64,000 nt of DNA from a virus (Duplodnaviria; Caudoviricetes), in IMG/VR virus record IMGVR_UViG_3300017700_000931, positions 192,001-256,000 of that record. One strand, 5' to 3'. A program made the translations under genes and the position numbers. Within the stretch, counting starts at the first letter, position 1. Every line of letters begins with the position of its first letter. Of this stretch, positions 22,597 through 60,745 are shown piece by piece. The notes under the pieces are model-generated. The model had not been told where the DNA came from, did no database searches, and worked only from the letters and a program-made list of their open reading frames with translations.

Positions 22597-24147
22597 TTAG
22601 TTTCTAGGTTTCTCAACTCTATTAATCAAATCCATTATTCTCTTTGTTGAAGAATCAACATAGGCAGTATTCTCGTTTAATTGTTTTGAATTACTACTTG
22701 TTGCTTCTTTAATTATTTTACTCTCAATTGATTCAGCGATTGGTTTTTTAGAAGCCAATTCATTCACAATTGTTTTATATAACCTTTTAGATTCTTTGAT
22801 TGTTGTTACTTCTTCATCAAATCTTGCTATGATTGCTTCCTTCTCTTCTCTAGTAGTAGAGTGTTCAGTGAACAATCTTGTAACATTGGTTAAATTAGTA
22901 TTAAAAACTACTGTTTCTCCTAGCATTGTTCTAAATTTCTTAAGAGCACTTCTGAATTCATCATTTTGCTTTTTAAGTTCTCTAGCCTCAGCTAAAAGTC
23001 TATTATATTTTGCAACAGATTCAGCGGTAACATTACCGTCTTTAACATTGTTAGCTTTAGCACCAGCACCTTCAATTGAAGTTTTCTTGTTAGTTACATT
23101 TCTGCCTTTACCAACTTGAATTTTTTCGTCAATTGCTTCCTCACCTTCAACAACATCTTCCTCAGAAAGTTCTGATTCCATTACGTGTTCACCGTGATTA
23201 TCTCCAGCCGGAGCTCCATCGTCATCAAATCCACCTTCTAGATTATCTCCAGATGTATCTTTGTCAACAGGAGCTTTTTGTCCTTCAATATTACCTGAGT
23301 TACCACCTTTTGAGTTTTTACCCATAGTAACATCACTTGTTGCTGTTCTAACTTTGTCTTCTGTTATTTCTTCATTTTCAGAAACTTCTTCTTCGTCAAG
23401 TGCTATTTCATAAACAACACCTTCTTCGATACCTTCTTCTGTGGCCTCGGTATCAGAAGTATCCATGTACTCATCTTCAGCACCCAAATCCATTTCGGAA
23501 TCATCTTCCATTTCACCACCTAAGTCGGAACCCAAACTGCTATCCATTTCTGAATCATCGTCTGAATCTAATCCTAAACCTAAATCTAATCCGGTTGCGC
23601 CTCCTAATGCAGCTTCTTTTTTCCCACCCATTTTAACGTGGTACTCACTTCCGCTCACTGGGTCTTTAATGTGTACTTCATTATCAGAAACTACTTCAAT
23701 TTCATCATCTCCTGACAATTTCTTGTAAACAGAAATTACGTCTTCGTCAGATGCACCAGTCATGTCCAATTCATAATCTTCTTCAGATTCTTCTTCTCCA
23801 CCGTAGTTAATTTCACTACCTTGCGTGTCGTCCATTCCAGCCTCGTCATAGTCATCAGATGCATCATCTAATCCTAAATCTTCACCAGCTTCTTCTCCAG
23901 CTTCATCATCACCAGTAACATCGTCACCAGTTTCAGAATCAGCAGCAGCTAAATCTAATGTGTCTTCAGAATCATCAACATCTTCTTCTTCATAGTCATC
24001 CTCATTCAAGGATTCTTTCACCAAACCATCAATTTCTTCTCTCGCAACGGAACGAAGTATTTCTTTAGTATTGGAATTTAAAGCTTCTTGGATTCTTTTA
24101 GCATCCAAAAGTGCTTCTTCAATTATTGACTTTTTCTTTTCGGCCAT
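22597..24147 (-). CDS. Prohead core scaffold protein (gp22-like)
   Basis: Very acidic, coiled-coil C-term, many LxE sites, located between protease and capsid genes. Confidence 0.75.
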   Translation of the reverse strand: MAEKKKSIIEEALLDAKRIQEALNSNTKEILRSVAREEIDGLVKESLNEDDYEEEDVDDSEDTLDLAAADSETGDDVTGDDEAGEEAGEDLGLDDASDDYDEAGMDDTQGSEINYGGEEESEEDYELDMTGASDEDVISVYKKLSGDDEIEVVSDNEVHIKDPVSGSEYHVKMGGKKEAALGGATGLDLGLGLDSDDDSEMDSSLGSDLGGEMEDDSEMDLGAEDEYMDTSDTEATEEGIEEGVVYEIALDEEEVSENEEITEDKVRTATSDVTMGKNSKGGNSGNIEGQKAPVDKDTSGDNLEGGFDDDGAPAGDNHGEHVMESELSEEDVVEGEEAIDEKIQVGKGRNVTNKKTSIEGAGAKANNVKDGNVTAESVAKYNRLLAEARELKKQNDEFRSALKKFRTMLGETVVFNTNLTNVTRLFTEHSTTREEKEAIIARFDEEVTTIKESKRLYKTIVNELASKKPIAESIESKIIKEATSSNSKQLNENTAYVDSSTKRIMDLINRVEKPRN

Positions 24148-24273
24148 TTTTTTTTCTCTTTTAATAGAAAATTATCTAGTTGGGTTTTATCCCATCTTGT
24201 TTATAAATATGTTTCAAAAATCAAAAAATTCAGTTTTCATTAAAAAAACTAACATAATGAAAACTTTTTTTTC

Positions 24274-31098: not shown

Positions 31099-32319
31099 TT
31101 AAAACAAACCGGATAGGTCAATATCATCTAGGTCATTATAACCATATGAATCATCTGAACTATTCATTTCTTTAATAGAATTCTCGTAATCATCTCGTTT
31201 CATATCAGCATCAATGTTGCTTACAATTTCACGAATCTTTTCTTTACCCTCCTTAGAACCCAACATAATTTCTCTCATTGTATGATTAAATTCTTCAGTC
31301 GGTAATGCAACAAGGTCAGCATAGATATGATGTTTCTTATCAAAATCTTTCGGGTCAATACAATCAGTAAAACGTTCCCAAATTGGTGCCCCTAATCTCA
31401 TATCCCAAGGTTCGGCATTCATAAAATCTGCTTTACCCATAACATACTCAGTCAATTTTTCATCTTGAGGTAATCCATTTGCTGATAGTATTTCCATCAC
31501 ACCTTTAACCAATTCATGGATTAGAACCGGAAAGACAAATGCTTGAGCATGAATTACTGGTTTACCATCAACATACTCTACTCTAACAACACCACCAGCT
31601 TGTTTAGGCATACTATCGTCCATAGTAAGGTACCCATAATCAGCTGCGGCCATCATTTTAGCGTATTTATTCGGTAAGGTAGGGTTCATGTTGGTTAAAT
31701 CATTTTCAGCCATGTGAAACATATGGTGACCCTTTTTAGATGCACCTTGAATCATACTGTTAATGAATCTTCTTTTATAAACTTCAGCATTTGCTGATTT
31801 AACACTATCATGGTTTTCAAATTCCATGTTCTCAATTCTAATTGGAGATGGATTTTTTTGAATACTATCGATATTAATATCTTGAGTTAATTCAGCGATA
31901 ATTTCCACATCATCTTCGCCCATATCATACTCTTTTCTAATCATAGAGATAGCTAATTCTTGCAATTTTTCTCTGTGTTTAGTTTCAAGTTTCATACACT
32001 CTTGAACTATTGGAATCATATTTCTAACCGCTTCCATAGGTTCGGCGGTTTCTGAATCAAATTGTTTCTTATAATTTTTAAGAACGTCACCAAATCTTTT
32101 CGACATGATTTTTTCTTCAAAATGAGATTCATCACTCTCAGGAAAAATAGGGTGATTACCTAGACTATGATTTCTGTCTCTCAGTTGTTTAACTAAAATT
32201 GAATTCATTTTTTCAGGATGACCATCTTCATAAACAATTCTACTTTCGTTGATTGGTTTATTAGTACTGGCCAATGCCTTTTCTAATGCTCTTTTTCTTA
32301 TTTCGTCTAATCTACTCAT
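31099..32319 (-). CDS. Hypothetical head-module protein
   Basis: 406-aa ORF, HELVKG motif (HExxK; possible degenerate metalloprotease). Confidence 0.6.
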   Translation of the reverse strand: MSRLDEIRKRALEKALASTNKPINESRIVYEDGHPEKMNSILVKQLRDRNHSLGNHPIFPESDESHFEEKIMSKRFGDVLKNYKKQFDSETAEPMEAVRNMIPIVQECMKLETKHREKLQELAISMIRKEYDMGEDDVEIIAELTQDINIDSIQKNPSPIRIENMEFENHDSVKSANAEVYKRRFINSMIQGASKKGHHMFHMAENDLTNMNPTLPNKYAKMMAAADYGYLTMDDSMPKQAGGVVRVEYVDGKPVIHAQAFVFPVLIHELVKGVMEILSANGLPQDEKLTEYVMGKADFMNAEPWDMRLGAPIWERFTDCIDPKDFDKKHHIYADLVALPTEEFNHTMREIMLGSKEGKEKIREIVSNIDADMKRDDYENSIKEMNSSDDSYGYNDLDDIDLSGLF

Positions 32320-33074
32320 TATTTTTTTGTTTTTAGTATGTGTTCAACCAAATCAGATTTCTTCATCCTTGGGTTAACGTTTTCTGATACGGATTTTAAT
32401 GATTGTAATATCATTGGTAATTTTGCTCTAGGAATTCCGATTCTCTCACCGAACGCTGCAATTATTTCAGCTTGCTCAATGGGTTTATCTATCTTAGCAA
32501 ATAAAGCTTCAAACTGACCTAGATTTAATTTATCCATAAATTTTTGTACGTCGGATTTTAATTTAACTTGGTCAACAGGAATGGTTTCTAAATTTTCTTC
32601 AGTAAGTCCATTATTTTTTTTCTTCAACGCTTTAACGTATTGTTTTTTAATATTTAACAATGTTGGTATACCGTCAAATTCCATATTTCTTTTTAGAATT
32701 ACTTCAGTGTTAGGTTTCCCACCAGTATCATACACACTTCTAGAAGTTATTTTTAACACACCATTTTTATAAATAATTGGAGTGTAAACCATAGGCTCTT
32801 CCCAAGTACCTGTAGTATCAATTACACCTATCGGGTCACCGTCAGTATCGATTGCATCAGTAATCATTTGATTAATTAGATTAACCAATTTCTCTACTTT
32901 AGGTTCATTACGATTAGTACCAGCATTATCGGCCTCATCAACAATCTTCACAACAGTATCGTCTGGTAATTCATCAACACTATCTTGATATTGTTGCAAA
33001 TTCATAACAACTTTCTTTTGTTCAGCTTCAACAACCTTATGAAGTTCACCAGTGATTTTATTTTTTAAGTTCAT
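32319..33074 (-). CDS. Hypothetical protein
   Basis: Coupled ORF in late operon. Confidence 0.6.
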   Translation of the reverse strand: MNLKNKITGELHKVVEAEQKKVVMNLQQYQDSVDELPDDTVVKIVDEADNAGTNRNEPKVEKLVNLINQMITDAIDTDGDPIGVIDTTGTWEEPMVYTPIIYKNGVLKITSRSVYDTGGKPNTEVILKRNMEFDGIPTLLNIKKQYVKALKKKNNGLTEENLETIPVDQVKLKSDVQKFMDKLNLGQFEALFAKIDKPIEQAEIIAAFGERIGIPRAKLPMILQSLKSVSENVNPRMKKSDLVEHILKTKK

Positions 33075-33477
33075 TTTTTTTGACTTTATATTCTAGTACG
33101 AAATCTTTCTCGTACAAAGAGTCTTCAACAGACTTTATTGTTTGTCCAAATTTAAACCTAAGTCTAGAATTTGGGTATTCTTCATAATCAGAAATATCTT
33201 CCCAAGCTAATGCTATGATATCATCAACAGCATCCCAAACAGCAAAGGTGTCGCTATTTTGTACTGTTTCAAGCTTTAATTTTGAAGTCAATACACCAAC
33301 AGCCTTAACCAAATCTTTTCTAGGTGGGCTAGGTTGTCCCGATGCCGGATACAAGTCCCAATCTTCACCATCAATATTTTCTTTAGTATCTGAAAAAATG
33401 AATTCATAAATGTTCTCATTCTCCCAATCACTACCTAAAACATTTACATAAATCAAAAACAATCCGTCTTTATTCAT
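33058..33477 (-). CDS. Hypothetical protein
   Basis: Coupled ORF in late operon. Confidence 0.6.
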   Translation of the reverse strand: MNKDGLFLIYVNVLGSDWENENIYEFIFSDTKENIDGEDWDLYPASGQPSPPRKDLVKAVGVLTSKLKLETVQNSDTFAVWDAVDDIIALAWEDISDYEEYPNSRLRFKFGQTIKSVEDSLYEKDFVLEYKVKKNELKK

Positions 33478-34565
33478 TATTTTTTCTCTTCAATATAATC
33501 ATCAGCAACACCTGAAACATCCAAATTTGTTTCTGGATTACCATTAAATTCTACCTTCACAGTATAATTTTTCTCATCCGGTGCATCAACTGATTTATAA
33601 ATATAAAGCCATGGCTCATCGCTGTTAGTTGGCTTTTCAGTGTATTCACCTGAATTTTCAAACTTCATATCAATCTCATTGTCATCTAAACTAACTTTAA
33701 GAATTGCTATTTTGCTATCTAAAAATTTAACATCAATGATTTTACCACTAGCACCATTACCTTCAGATAATACATCAGATGCTTTAGGATTTGTTTTAGG
33801 TTGAATACTTGGCCTCCAAGGTTTTTGTCTTCTAGATGGTTTAACATCCGGTGTACTAGGTTTGATTGTTGGTTTAACAATCGGTTCTACTTCAGACATC
33901 TCATTTAACTTGCTCATAATTTTAGCTTTAGTCACAAAGTTACGCTTTTTTTCTGAATCTACCAACGATTTAGTCGGTGTTTTTCCCTCACCTAATTTAA
34001 AATTTTCTTCGGCAACATCTTCTCCACCTAAATCCGGTGCATCATTACCACCATCTCCATTGGTTGTATCAACATTAGCATCAGTATTATCTGAATTAGT
34101 ATCAACATCGACATTAACGTCTACATTATTTTTATCGTTACCAGCTGATTTAACCTTGTCAATGATATCCTTTTGGTCAGAATCATCCATTTGGCCTGTG
34201 TGAGTAGCTGAAAGAACTGAATTAACAGCAAATTTTTCTAAATCAAAATCAGGATTACCTTGTTGTCCACTATATGACCTCAATGATTGACCTAATTTAC
34301 CAGCTAATTGTTGTATGAATGTTTTTGGGTCTGATTCTTCATCAGCTTCAACACCAGCATCGAATGGTTCATCATCAAAAGGTTTATCATCAACTGGTGC
34401 ATCACCACCCATATCCTCTAAACTTCCTAAATCACCACCCATGTCTTCCAATCCATCCAATGAATTAGCATCAGGTGCTGGGGCTTGAGCCCCCAACTTT
34501 AATTTGAATTTTGTTTCATCGATATTATATCCATTTTCCTCATCAGAGAAAAGGCCAGTGGACAT
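33477..34565 (-). CDS. Acidic core-like protein; probable -1 frameshift extension of 34586..35419
   Basis: Its frame is open upstream through the slippery site at 34592-34604. Confidence 0.65.
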   Translation of the reverse strand: MSTGLFSDEENGYNIDETKFKLKLGAQAPAPDANSLDGLEDMGGDLGSLEDMGGDAPVDDKPFDDEPFDAGVEADEESDPKTFIQQLAGKLGQSLRSYSGQQGNPDFDLEKFAVNSVLSATHTGQMDDSDQKDIIDKVKSAGNDKNNVDVNVDVDTNSDNTDANVDTTNGDGGNDAPDLGGEDVAEENFKLGEGKTPTKSLVDSEKKRNFVTKAKIMSKLNEMSEVEPIVKPTIKPSTPDVKPSRRQKPWRPSIQPKTNPKASDVLSEGNGASGKIIDVKFLDSKIAILKVSLDDNEIDMKFENSGEYTEKPTNSDEPWLYIYKSVDAPDEKNYTVKVEFNGNPETNLDVSGVADDYIEEKK

Positions 34566-34569
34566 ACCA

Positions 34570-34604
34570 TCTAACTTAGTTTCAGTTAGACTTTTTTTTT
34601 TAAA
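34570..34604 (-). promoter_or_regulatory. Candidate -1 programmed ribosomal frameshift signal
   Basis: U UUA AAA heptamer within TTT-A10 run, followed about 7 nt later by stem TCTAACT/AGTTAGA. Confidence 0.65.
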
Positions 34605-35419
34605 GCTTCAGAAAGAGCTTTAATTTCTTGTGGAGTTAGGCTATTAAGCATTTTATTCAATCTATCTTCGTTTTCACCGATAGAAATTGCTTTACCTATT
34701 TTAAGTCTTTTGTTCACAAGGTAATCATCTGATTCATCAGAGTCACCATCGTTATCAACATCAGAATCTTCTTTACCAACTGCATCCAATGATTCACCAG
34801 TAATCATTTTATCAATTGCTTCTTCATCTTCAGTCAATTCAACATCGTCTTCTTTTATAATTTCAGTATCATGGCCAGCACCTCTTGCTTTACCAGTATT
34901 TTTTGAGCTAGCTTTTGGTTTTTCTTTAAAATCACCTTCTAGATTATCTCCAGATGTATCTTTGTCAACCGGAGCGGCATCACCATTCATGTCCTCTATT
35001 TCACCAACAAATCCCCAAGAACCACCAGCAATGGCATTATCTTCTTTAAGTAATCTATCGTTCTCAAATACATTAACTCTTTCACCACCAAATGATTCAT
35101 TGATGCTTAAGAATTTAAGATTTAATTGCTTAATAGCTTTTGCGTATGTTGGGTAAGCTTCAGCTTTTTTATTTTGAAGTCCACCAATATATTTAAAATC
35201 TTCAGTAACAAGATTAGATTTTTTATCAGATATCTTGATATAATATTCATGATTTTCTCTAACGATTCCGTAGACAACACCATTAGGCCCAACTTTTGTC
35301 AACTCAACAACAGAATTATTTGTAGATTCATTAACGAATGTACCCATCAATTGTCTGATACGGTCCAATTCTTGATTTCCTTTTAGACCTGTTGGTTTAA
35401 TTGTATTAATTTTCTTCAT
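34586..35419 (-). CDS. Putative prohead core/internal protein (short form, ends ALKKKV)
   Basis: Late motif at 35436; several LxE sites; shares 37 bp with scaffold gene. Confidence 0.6.
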   Translation of the reverse strand: MKKINTIKPTGLKGNQELDRIRQLMGTFVNESTNNSVVELTKVGPNGVVYGIVRENHEYYIKISDKKSNLVTEDFKYIGGLQNKKAEAYPTYAKAIKQLNLKFLSINESFGGERVNVFENDRLLKEDNAIAGGSWGFVGEIEDMNGDAAPVDKDTSGDNLEGDFKEKPKASSKNTGKARGAGHDTEIIKEDDVELTEDEEAIDKMITGESLDAVGKEDSDVDNDGDSDESDDYLVNKRLKIGKAISIGENEDRLNKMLNSLTPQEIKALSEALKKKV

Positions 35420-35958: not shown

Positions 35959-37074
35959 TTAGTTAGAAAGTTTTGCAATTATAGCCGGATGTGGGTCATA
36001 ATTTGAAATCTTAACGTTCTCATAACAATAAGTAAAAAGATTATCTGCTTTTTCTAGATTTAATTTGGGTAATTCTCTAGGCTCCCTAGATAATAATTCA
36101 TTTACTTGGTCAATATGATTCTTGTAAATATGCACATCACCTAACGACCCAATCAATTCATCTGGTACCATATTAACTTCCTTCGCAATCATATGTAATA
36201 GAAGTGCATATGATGCAATGTTAAATGGTAACCCCAAGAATGTATCAACTGAACGTTGAATCCATTTTAATGAAATAGCCCTAGTTGGTATATTAAATGA
36301 ATCAAAATATTCATGAGATTCTTTACTTCGTTCTAGAACTTCCGGTTTAGTCAAGCGATTAAAATATTCATCTCTACGTTCCTCTAAATCCAACACCCTT
36401 GTATTTAGTTCAAAACCATAGTGACACGGCGGCAATACCATATCTTTAATTTCACCAACATTCCACGCATTAACAATAAGCCTTCTAGAATCAGGATTAT
36501 TTTTCAATTCATTAATTAAATTTGCAATTTGATTTATACCTTTGAAATGAACACCCATATTACCAGCTCTATCAGCATGGCCAGCGGAGAAATAACCACC
36601 CCAGTTTACCCACTGCTTACCATAGATAGGTCCTAAATCACCCCATTTTTTTGCAAATGATTCAGACCCATATTCATGACAATTTTTTATCATATCTATA
36701 AAGTCTGCTTCGGATAAAATAATATCCTTGTTTTCACCATTCAATTTTTTAACCATCTGAGTTGTACCAGAAGCATTCCCTTTTTCAAATTCACTTTTAT
36801 AATGTTTATAAGCATCACCATTCCAAATGTGAACTCCATTATCTACAAGATATTTTATGTTCGTATCACCATTCAAAAACCATAGAAGTTCATGAACAAT
36901 ACCCTTCATATACATTTTCTTTGTGGTTAACAATGGAAATCCGTCTGACATTTTAAATCTAACATCTCTGGAAAAAACAGAAATGGTACCAGTTCCAGTT
37001 CTATCACTTTTACTAGTACCATTTTCTAAAATGTCTTTCAATAGTTTTTGGTAAACTACATCTACTTTATCCAT
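35959..37074 (-). CDS. thyA: Thymidylate synthase
   Basis: DRTGTGT, FPLLTTKK, ELLWFLNG, LGPIYGKQW, NPDSRRL, LPPCH, QRSVDTFLGLPFNIASY, HIYKNH. Confidence 0.97.
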   Translation of the reverse strand: MDKVDVVYQKLLKDILENGTSKSDRTGTGTISVFSRDVRFKMSDGFPLLTTKKMYMKGIVHELLWFLNGDTNIKYLVDNGVHIWNGDAYKHYKSEFEKGNASGTTQMVKKLNGENKDIILSEADFIDMIKNCHEYGSESFAKKWGDLGPIYGKQWVNWGGYFSAGHADRAGNMGVHFKGINQIANLINELKNNPDSRRLIVNAWNVGEIKDMVLPPCHYGFELNTRVLDLEERRDEYFNRLTKPEVLERSKESHEYFDSFNIPTRAISLKWIQRSVDTFLGLPFNIASYALLLHMIAKEVNMVPDELIGSLGDVHIYKNHIDQVNELLSREPRELPKLNLEKADNLFTYCYENVKISNYDPHPAIIAKLSN

Positions 37075-41834: not shown

Positions 41835-42257
41835 TTATGCAACTTTTTCACCTATAAATTCATAACTAAAGCAGACCCTTTTATTGTCAACATAGTGATT
41901 CTTAAATAGATTGGTGTGATTCACATCGATTCTTAGCTTCTTATTTTTAGTGGTCGGTTTCCATAATGGAGAATGTTGCATATAATATCCCATTCTGGGG
42001 TGGGCCGCTCTAGAAAAGAACCTCTTACCTTCGTCAAGGTGTAATTGAGCACAAGCGTTAATAAACCTAACCCCGATACCCAAGCCTTGATAATCAGGTA
42101 ATATGACAACCCTATGGCCACGCCACGCATTTTTAACATATCCAGTTGGCATTGCAATACTGGCTAAAAAACCAACCACATTACCGTTCCATGTGGCAAC
42201 ATAACATCTGGTCGCAACATGTAAGTCATCATTTAAATAATGATGCTCTTTAAACAT
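41835..42257 (-). CDS. GNAT-like acetyltransferase (C-terminal half of ATPase-GNAT)
   Basis: W.MFKEHHYL, RGHRVVILPDYQGLGIG, HPRMG. Confidence 0.8.
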   Translation of the reverse strand: MFKEHHYLNDDLHVATRCYVATWNGNVVGFLASIAMPTGYVKNAWRGHRVVILPDYQGLGIGVRFINACAQLHLDEGKRFFSRAAHPRMGYYMQHSPLWKPTTKNKKLRIDVNHTNLFKNHYVDNKRVCFSYEFIGEKVA

Positions 42258-42922
42258 GGGCCAGATACTGCGATTTGCTCTATGTATTTGGAGATTGATT
42301 TCTGGTCGGACAAAAAAAAACCATCGTAGATTTCTCCATTATTAGCATTTATTACCCAGTCCGGTTCTAACCAATCAATCACATCATCATGACAAGTAGC
42401 AATAACCACGTTTTTTATATTATTTTTTTTAATGTATTTTGAAAGAGATACTGATGCAGCCTTCGCTACATTTCTATCTACAACCGACGTGAATTCATCC
42501 AATACTGCATTGTCTTTAATTTTTCTGGCTAAATCGGCCCTAAATTTTTCACCATTGGATAACACATGGTATGGTTTATACCAACTTGGGATAGTATTCA
42601 ATCCAACGGCACCTAATTTATTTATAGCTTCATCTGGCGTATCAAAATGAGACATGATGGATTTATTTATTTCCCAGCTAGGTTGTAATTCTTGACCAAA
42701 TTCATTCAATAGGGTACTTTTTCCAGAACCACTGGAGCCATAAATAACGCCAATATTAAATTCAGATGGTAATAGTTTTGGTTTTTCCCATGGGAAGAAT
42801 CTTGAGGTTCCGTCAAAAGTACAATCAAATGCTTTCTCACTAGCCATGATAAACTCATCCTTTTCAACGGACGAAGTTAGTGGTATTAGTTGTTTTGATA
42901 ATTGTTCTATGATATTCCTCAT
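42233..42922 (-). CDS. ABC-type ATPase (N-terminal half of ATPase-GNAT)
   Basis: GSSGSGKST, LSNGEKFRA signature, LDEFTSVVDR, ATCHDDVIDWLEPDW. Confidence 0.88.
   Translation of the reverse strand: MRNIIEQLSKQLIPLTSSVEKDEFIMASEKAFDCTFDGTSRFFPWEKPKLLPSEFNIGVIYGSSGSGKSTLLNEFGQELQPSWEINKSIMSHFDTPDEAINKLGAVGLNTIPSWYKPYHVLSNGEKFRADLARKIKDNAVLDEFTSVVDRNVAKAASVSLSKYIKKNNIKNVVIATCHDDVIDWLEPDWVINANNGEIYDGFFLSDQKSISKYIEQIAVSGPCLKSIII
42312..42322 (-). promoter_or_regulatory. Candidate -1 frameshift slippery run GG-U9-G
   Basis: -1 frame reads FFFVRPEINLQIHRANRSIWPMFKEHHYL, in frame with the GNAT ORF. Confidence 0.65.
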
Positions 42923-54237: not shown

Positions 54238-54246
54238 AATTTTTTT

Positions 54247-54540
54247 TTAAAAGGGTAAATCGTTGTTTATATAACCATAACCCAATATCGAGTCATCCGG
54301 TTTCACATAATCTGGGTTATCAATCTTATCTACTACGATGGTATTATTTATCGGGTAGAAAGAAATCGCATCATATGGTTCATACCTATTAAGTGGGGGC
54401 TCATTTTCCACTGAAAATACATATGCAATACCATTAATTTGCATGATATCAGCAAATACTTCCTTCTGAATCACTGATAAACCACATAAAATCTCTAATT
54501 TAAAGATAAATCTAGGGTGTCTAACCTCATTTTTCTTCAT
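54247..54540 (-). CDS. Hypothetical protein
   Basis: Coupled ORF. Confidence 0.5.
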   Translation of the reverse strand: MKKNEVRHPRFIFKLEILCGLSVIQKEVFADIMQINGIAYVFSVENEPPLNRYEPYDAISFYPINNTIVVDKIDNPDYVKPDDSILGYGYINNDLPF

Positions 54541-60622: not shown

Positions 60623-60745
60623 AGGGGTTTAAAATATTTGGCCAAAATTTTCTGGGAAATTTTTTTTTGAAATAGGCATAGGTCACTTTTTACTTCGAAA
60701 AATTTCTGGAAAAAATTTGTTTGTCACTCCATATGCCCTATTAAG

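Follow-up and report, generated by a model that had tools for sequence, protein, structure and literature searches.

Introduction

Programmed frameshifts in phages are best known from tail chaperones and from dnaX-like genes. The G and GT proteins of the tail assembly chaperone of tailed phages were reportedly described by Xu et al. in 2004 as products of a −1 frameshift. Here we describe predicted recoding in an enzyme family, at a gene that encodes an ABC-type ATPase followed in the −1 frame by a GNAT acyltransferase domain. The gene lies on the minus strand of a 64-kb stretch of DNA (the window), bases 192001-256000 of IMGVR_UViG_3300017700_000931, a complete 362,532-bp IMG/VR virus record with direct terminal repeats, and the two frames meet at a run of nine T's (T9). 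As in the tail chaperone, −1 recoding here would extend across very divergent phages and yield a short protein and a C-terminally extended one, at a ratio that is fixed in the chaperone. The chaperone, however, is a structural-assembly protein recoded mostly at canonical heptamers, and not an enzyme fusion.

Other described systems resemble the locus in the site itself or in its products. The dnaX gene of Escherichia coli undergoes a −1 frameshift at A_AAA_AAG with a hairpin, and that of Thermus thermophilus undergoes transcriptional slippage at A9. The likeness to the dnaX products tau and gamma lies in a full-length protein and a shorter one that has the ATPase but not the C-terminal domain(s), and in a route that is ribosomal or transcriptional depending on the lineage. 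The shift in dnaX produces the short form, whereas here it would produce the long fusion, and an AAA+ clamp loader differs from an ABC protein and serves another biology. In Shigella flexneri mxiE, Penno et al. are said to have found that RNA polymerase adds one U at a T9 tract and thereby fuses two overlapping open reading frames (ORFs). The nine T's, the net gain of one nucleotide, the apparent lack of a stimulatory RNA structure and the fusion of overlapping frames are all matched by the present locus; mxiE, however, is a bacterial regulator gene rather than a phage enzyme, and transcript heterogeneity has been demonstrated for it, whereas our case rests on sequence. Finally, the non-canonical heptamer G_GUU_UUU of cardioviruses and arteriviruses occurs, in phase, in Streptococcus and Lactococcus phage homologs of the gene. 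The viral sites are stimulated by a protein bound to downstream RNA, whereas the phage sites have an ordinary hairpin 5-6 nucleotides (nt) downstream.

The protein family itself is known by prediction, just as programmed −1 recoding is known as a class of mechanism. The phrog_11143 family of phages and prokaryotes, named by JGI 'ABC-type ATPase with predicted acetyltransferase domain', has the same domains in the same order with a collinear profile match, but the gene studied here has its domains in different frames and needs a −1 shift. A GNAT coupled to an ABC ATPase, in jumbo phages including Tenacibaculum phage pT24, has been predicted to make an uncharacterised acyl modification of a DNA base (PMC7824862, section 3.4.7, citing Iyer, Aravind and co-workers); a preliminary description of our locus had referred to such a prediction correctly. 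The RNA cytidine acetyltransferases TmcA/NAT10, in which a P-loop ATPase is combined with a GNAT that acylates a nucleobase to give N4-acetylcytidine (ac4C), served as a working analogy, and a weak match to the NAT10 GNAT motif was obtained (E 0.015). Its ATPase, however, is helicase-like and not ABC, there is no significant overall homology, and the gene studied here does not belong to it. Searches of the accessible literature turned up no mention of recoding in the ABC-ATPase-GNAT family. New, as far as searched, are the recoding of this family, its repetition at one linker, and a trade-off between slip-site type and hairpin strength within one clade.

Results and discussion

The ATPase ORF (42922..42233, minus strand; ATG at 42922, stop at 42235-42233) encodes 229 amino acids (aa) and contains the Walker A (GSSGSGKST), signature (LSNGE), Walker B (LDEF) and H-loop (CHDD) motifs. 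Its codons 201-204 read GGT TTT TTT TTG within the minus-strand sequence GAT GGT TTT TTT TTG TCC. The T9 tract (U9 in the mRNA) occupies 42320..42312 on the minus strand, flanked by GG at 42322-42321 and G at 42311, and includes two heptamers in the phase of the 0 frame, U_UUU_UUU (42320..42314) and U_UUU_UUG (42317..42311). The −1 frame is closed upstream by TAA at 42341-42339, six codons ahead of the first TTT. From there an open stretch of 167 codons plus a stop at 41837-41835 (41835..42338, minus) reads W R N L R W F F F V R P E I N L Q I H R A N R S I W P M F K E H H Y L and holds the GNAT domain, which in the predicted fusion would run from V205 to A362 (41838..42311) and carries invariant HHYL and QGLGIG motifs. 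In the 0 frame, L204 would be followed by a 25-codon tail (42236..42310) that overlaps the start of the GNAT frame. An internal ATG, corresponding to Met19 of the GNAT domain, is found at 42255..42257. On re-reading the sequence we found that the preliminary description was right about the U9 reading, the end of the ATPase at 42233 and the upstream TAA.

In the DNA as it stands, the two domains are not in one polypeptide but in frames 0 and −1. Pfam analysis assigned ABC_tran to the first ORF and Acetyltransf_1/_7 to the −1 frame, all over the cut-off, and NCBIfam ABC ATP-binding models also matched the ATPase ORF. When compared with the single-chain profile phrog_11143 (357 positions), the ATPase ORF covered positions 37-195 and the −1 frame positions 200-353; the two segments abut at the T run, and a −1 shift is needed to make them contiguous. 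Either an added U or a ribosomal −1 slip at T9 would join both frames into a protein of 203 + 159 = 362 aa, the length of the single ORF of a relative with ten T's (T10). The fusion of about 362 aa with its GNAT in the −1 frame, which had been proposed earlier, is thus supported by Pfam, by phrog_11143 and by the T10 relative.

The split was then examined in 80 related IMG/VR loci with 51-80% aa identity. The GNAT lies in the −1 frame in 63 of them, with a frame overlap of 91-178 nt, and the 0-frame stop is at the same codon wherever the locus alignment begins at residue 1. A comparison of the slip site across homologs, which the preliminary description had called for, revealed GG-T9 at the identical position in 58 of the 63 split loci, with freely varying codons on either side, and nine T's were kept in 58 of the 59 split loci that have a T run. 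Three loci (two distinct sequences) carry T10 and are fused, as single in-frame ORFs that read GFFFVRP or GFFFKRP. On the ATPase tree the two T10 lineages nest separately inside T9 clades, which suggests that T9 is the maintained state and T10 a sporadic derivative, either variant or error. A similar picture was obtained from a 5.8-billion-protein set, where the closest 120 proteins, from assemblies of JGI, ENA, NCBI and Logan, had 225-248 aa and 67-100% identity; no protein of about 362 aa was among them, lengths up to 401 having been included in the search. Had T9 arisen by error from a T10 gene, these proportions should be reversed, and T9 is very unlikely to be a sequencing error. Remoter homologs without a T run are plain in-frame fusions of 352-383 aa, and an exhaustive HMMER search at E<=1e-30 returned 597 clusters (50% identity), most of which are single chains with lengths of 350-400 aa. 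Taken alone, a T9 tract is unremarkable in DNA of 33% GC: the 64 kb contain 5 distinct runs of at least nine T or A (6 overlapping 9-base matches), and 16 were expected from shuffles. The significance of T9 rests on its conservation, not on the chance statistics of one sequence.

The overlap of the two frames was also conserved. Both frames were free of stops over the overlap in 50 of 50 sequences, and in each of 49 distinct relatives the 0 frame ran on through the 25 codons to one shared stop position. With constraint on the −1 protein alone, about 23% would remain open (codons resampled from family usage), and the invariant HHYL codons themselves give rise to the stop. These numbers, from sequences that are related to one another, hint at double coding, in which the alternative-frame tail matters, or at a required distance to the stop. 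Counts of synonymous and non-synonymous changes gave no discrimination of the coding frame in the overlap (−1 frame, 0.19; 0 frame, 0.21; control, 0.12). Judged by the pattern across relatives as a whole, the interruption is maintained by selection and the fusion frame is the functional, homologous continuation.

Five split loci lack T9 and represent four distinct sequences. Two of these sequences (L061 and L068/L069) read GGA AAT TTT, which provides the canonical A_AAU_UUU in phase, and their −1 frame opens just two codons 5' of the heptamer; the minimum free energy (MFE) of the hairpin region is −24.0 kcal/mol in L061 and −17.7 kcal/mol in L068/L069. L055 has eight T's followed by C (T8) and retains U_UUU_UUU (−18.6 kcal/mol), and L009 has G_GAU_UUU (−14.3 kcal/mol). 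All four have a contiguous hairpin of 10-13 bp that begins about 6 nt past the heptamer, and its arms derive from conserved Pro (CCA) and Trp (UGG) codons of the GNAT N-terminus. Across the 46 distinct sequences of the T9 group the mean MFE was −5.6 kcal/mol, and only L004 reached −14.4 kcal/mol. The corresponding position in the studied locus (42259..42307, minus), where the Pro CCA arm pairs with the Trp UGG arm, forms 8 of the 13 hairpin pairs with a local MFE of −5.5 kcal/mol. A broken stem is nevertheless retained by the T9 sequences at the canonical 6-nt spacing, with 64% of cells pairing versus 20-39% in slid controls. A strong conserved stimulator for the T9 type was considered and rejected, since RNAalifold found no consensus structure in 47 T9 junctions and the average MFE z-score was 0. 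Where the slip site is shorter or weaker a strong hairpin accompanies it, and T9 mostly has none. This inverse relation suggests that the shift itself is under selection, and would otherwise be hard to explain.

We also computed the reading frames across the ATPase-GNAT joint in a collection of cultured phages. A 0/−1 split at the same joint was found in Streptococcus prophages (315.4, phiNIH1.1, the Javan series and MismyG), in Lactococcus phage P335, in Oenococcus phages and in the Thomasclavelia phages TR-TP1 and TR-TP2; the split loci in cultivable temperate phages of Streptococcus, Lactococcus and Oenococcus are L084, L085, L087, L088 and L171-L184. The Streptococcus/Lactococcus group carries CA[G GUU UUU] in phase (A_GUU_UUU in L184) and a stem 5-6 nt downstream of −15 to −22 kcal/mol. 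The stem differs in length among these phages (CCCCAC/GUGGGG, CCCCCAC/GUGGGGG and AAUUUCCCCAC/GUGGGGAAAUU), and in L182 the 3' arm has moved, so that GCCCACGGC is paired with GCUGUGGGC. Oenococcus phage Vinitor-27 has the canonical A_AAG_GGC. In TR-TP2 (L002, PQ571310.1 17945-19341) the transition from frame 0 to frame −1 occurs near CTG GGG GAG, at a run of five G's, and this junction has neither a canonical heptamer nor a clear hairpin; the Thomasclavelia split could reflect an ordinary frameshift mutation, or else slippage in the P site. In the ATPase tree the jumbo-phage clade (FastTree support 0.88), the Firmicutes-phage clade (0.89-0.94) and TR-TP2 (0.67) lie apart, each among in-frame relatives. 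Because the three split groups are separated in this way, the tree reads as at least three origins of the −1 split at the same domain joint. Two short representatives of 50% clusters, P0160 and P0206, were tried as further junction splits and discarded, being singletons that are broken elsewhere inside the GNAT. The homolog of Tenacibaculum phage pT24 (L086, NC_049383.1 ~32066-33238) is in frame at the joint and has an in-frame TGA in the GNAT (…NGVPV*INVISPLPS…), which may reflect an error, a pseudogene or read-through; its annotation is split into two genes, both called 'ABC transporter ATP-binding'. Breaks elsewhere in the GNAT, as in the two singletons and pT24, are a background of ordinary damage.

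A second homopolymer junction was found in the window. A run of ten A's (A10; 34601..34592, minus) precedes the stop of ORF 35419..34586 (277 aa, phrog_4359, function not assigned) by two codons, and the −1 frame at the run opens at 34607 and continues into ORF 34565..33477 (362 aa). Among distinct relatives, 60 of 62 have a run of nine to eleven A's (A9-A11) 1-9 codons before the stop, and in every case the −1 frame continues for 194-507 codons. All three phases are represented among these runs, and the relatives share no conserved structure downstream. In the 64-kb window T9 and A10 are the only runs of at least nine that lie in coding sequence, both at 0/−1 frame junctions, and on sequence grounds A10 appears to be a second conserved homopolymer recoding site.

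To gain insight into the products, we examined conserved residues and structure models. The ATPase columns S64 G65 G67 K68, S122 G124 and D142 E143 are invariant and H178 nearly so (alignment A2); in the GNAT, Q75 G76 are invariant and G78 G80 of QGLGIG, its Q/RxxGxG/A motif, nearly invariant (alignment A3), and HHYL is conserved. Since the ABC motifs and, in the GNAT, HHYL and the acyl-coenzyme A (CoA) motif QGLGIG are invariant or almost so, both domains should be active. An AlphaFold2 model of the studied GNAT (predicted local distance difference test, pLDDT, 91.8) places the first beta strand at residues 8-12, ahead of the Met at residue 19, and a protein started at ATG 42257 would accordingly lack that strand and a portion of helix 1. 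An in-frame relative was modelled as a single compact protein whose two domains are joined by a structured linker (pLDDT 94.3; predicted template modelling score 0.89). Fold matches were ABC nucleotide-binding domains for the ATPase and generic GNATs for the acyltransferase. Sequence and fold searches with the whole fusion and with the GNAT alone returned only generic ABC and GNAT matches, with no solved or characterised close relative. No signal specific to Mom was seen in Pfam at E<=1 (only Acetyltransf_1, _7 and _10) or in PDB and fold searches, and no direct comparison with Mom was made.

Several explanations other than recoding can be set against these data. Replication slippage that turns the GNAT off (T9) and on (T10) within the phage population would require no recoding, and the two T10 lineages (three loci), nested separately in T9 clades, fit such phase variation. 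T9 is nevertheless present in 58 of the 61 loci with T9 or T10, the fused form is missing from the closest 120 proteins, and homopolymer-free relatives keep the 0/−1 layout through a heptamer and a hairpin, which cannot phase-vary; we regard this explanation as very improbable. Least probable of all is that the layout comes from a homopolymer error in assembly or sequencing, the true gene being a plain T10 fusion, or from a decaying pseudogene with a dead GNAT. Homopolymers are error-prone, the singleton homologs L169 and L170 are broken elsewhere in the GNAT, and pT24 has its in-frame TGA. Yet the same T9 is found in dozens of independent assemblies at 65-98% identity, the overlap is stop-free in both frames throughout, the catalytic and CoA-binding motifs of the GNAT are invariant, and hairpin strength inversely tracks slip-site quality. 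A further possibility is two separate genes, one for the ATPase and one for a GNAT with its own start at ATG 42257. This ATG is in the GNAT frame, Met is common at that position in the family, and annotators of Streptococcus and Lactococcus phages called two genes. The model, however, places the first beta strand and part of helix 1 upstream of the ATG, in-frame homologs conserve the protein sequence ahead of the Met (RPxIxxxI...W), several of them having Y or I in place of the Met, and conserved slip sites and hairpins would serve no purpose. An independent start at ATG 42257 is thus unlikely, and the chance that two separate genes explain the locus is very small.

Programmed recoding at T9 very probably accounts for the layout, judging from the sequence comparisons above. 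Normal decoding of the T9 mRNA would give the 229-aa ABC ATPase with its 25-aa alternative-frame tail, and a net −1 shift at T9 would give the 362-aa ATPase-GNAT fusion, one gene thus specifying two proteins that share the ATPase. We lean to RNA polymerase adding one U on a 9-bp rU:dA hybrid, a route that we put at about even chances, because T9 has no hairpin, the length of nine is strictly kept, and the sole T8 locus has gained a strong hairpin; T9 of Shigella mxiE and A9 of Thermus dnaX are precedents. Seven U's would be enough for a ribosome, and nine is the length of the RNA-DNA hybrid. The second gene of the window, with its A9-A11 runs, points the same way. Hairpin-independent tandem slippage of the ribosome on U_UUU_UUU or U_UUU_UUG is a credible alternative, rated a little short of even, and both routes may contribute; any other explanation of a shift at T9 seems unlikely. 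In sister lineages without a long T run, classical ribosomal −1 frameshifting with heptamer and hairpin would be used. A purely ribosomal shift at U_UUU_UUU or U_UUU_UUG, with no transcriptional share, is a sub-case of programmed recoding to which we give considerable, though less than even, weight. It draws on the in-phase heptamer at T9 and on the residual interrupted stem at 6-nt spacing. It also draws on what looks like a habit of the family, as pairs of canonical heptamer and hairpin recur at the same codon positions in the sister lineages and in two further clades of phages. Against it stand the keeping of nine U's in nearly all T-run loci where seven suffice, the hairpin gained at the T8 locus, the lack of any energetic sign of structure at T9 loci, and the variable phase of the A9-A11 runs in the second gene. 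The preliminary description had claimed a frameshift that yields free ATPase plus fusion; programmed recoding with these two products is strongly supported by the comparisons, but a specifically ribosomal slip is not established, as insertion of a U by polymerase fits equally.

Some observations weigh against programmed recoding as we have set it out. Any T9 tract holds an in-phase heptamer, and phase therefore cannot tell ribosome from polymerase; the two kinds of slip are inseparable here, and the step that would produce the shift is one we infer from sequence. MFE z-scores gave no significant downstream structure at T9 (mean z 0.02), and in 50 junctions hairpin covariation did not exceed that of shuffles, most pairs being invariant and double-coded. 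With T9 lacking both structure and covariation, the classical ribosomal signal is incomplete. The T10 relatives demonstrate that length changes do occur at the DNA level. Furthermore, the dimer stoichiometry and the acylation function discussed below are things that we infer, and neither an ASCH gene nor another modification partner lies beside the studied gene.

ABC ATPases work as nucleotide-sandwich dimers. Dimers of the short and long forms could accordingly hold zero, one or two GNAT domains, and the short ATPase would tune the number of GNATs per ABC dimer as a dosage device similar to dnaX tau/gamma. By analogy with TmcA/NAT10, ATP binding or hydrolysis may be coupled to acyl-CoA-dependent acylation of a nucleobase. 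A wider proposal can be framed, in which homopolymers (T9 and the A10 of the second gene) replace heptamer and hairpin, act mainly through polymerase slippage and form a general device in jumbo phages, with the short ATPase as a required partner, at least three origins and a trade-off between slip site and hairpin. We hold it tentatively, as one that is less likely than not to be right.

The repeated and independent −1 split at one joint suggests that having the ATPase with and without the acyltransferase is itself selected, and it offers a handle on the workings of a widespread, uncharacterised family that is found in cultivable phages of Streptococcus, Lactococcus and Oenococcus. The sites form a natural series, T9 without a hairpin, T8 or A_AAU_UUU with a hairpin, and T10 in frame, which bears on slip-site length versus RNA structure and on ribosomal versus polymerase slippage. 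Annotation pipelines report such loci as 'ABC transporter ATP-binding protein' plus 'hypothetical protein', and the fusion is missed.

Genomic context

The genes around the ATPase-GNAT locus include a thymidylate synthase homolog, a ClpB-like ATPase, a DUF5661 protein, an SLT-like protein, a PF04308 RNaseH-like protein and a leucine-rich repeat protein. No ASCH gene was found in the whole genome of the studied phage. In Streptococcus phages the gene lies near terminase, with a ParB-N protein upstream and an ASCH protein downstream, and in an Oenococcus phage it comes after a gene for an adenine methyltransferase. Among ASCH proteins are N4-acylcytosine amidohydrolases and erasers of ac4C (PMC6972931; a 2026 preprint), and the ASCH neighbour in Streptococcus phages is a lead, not evidence.

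The other runs of nine T or A in the window (24147-24155, 54240-54248 and 60660-60668) are outside long ORFs, and one of them is an A9 directly upstream of an ATG. The thymidylate synthase homolog (35959-37074, minus) has 371 aa and matches a Pfam profile of 266 positions end to end, and it therefore has about 100 extra residues inside the domain.

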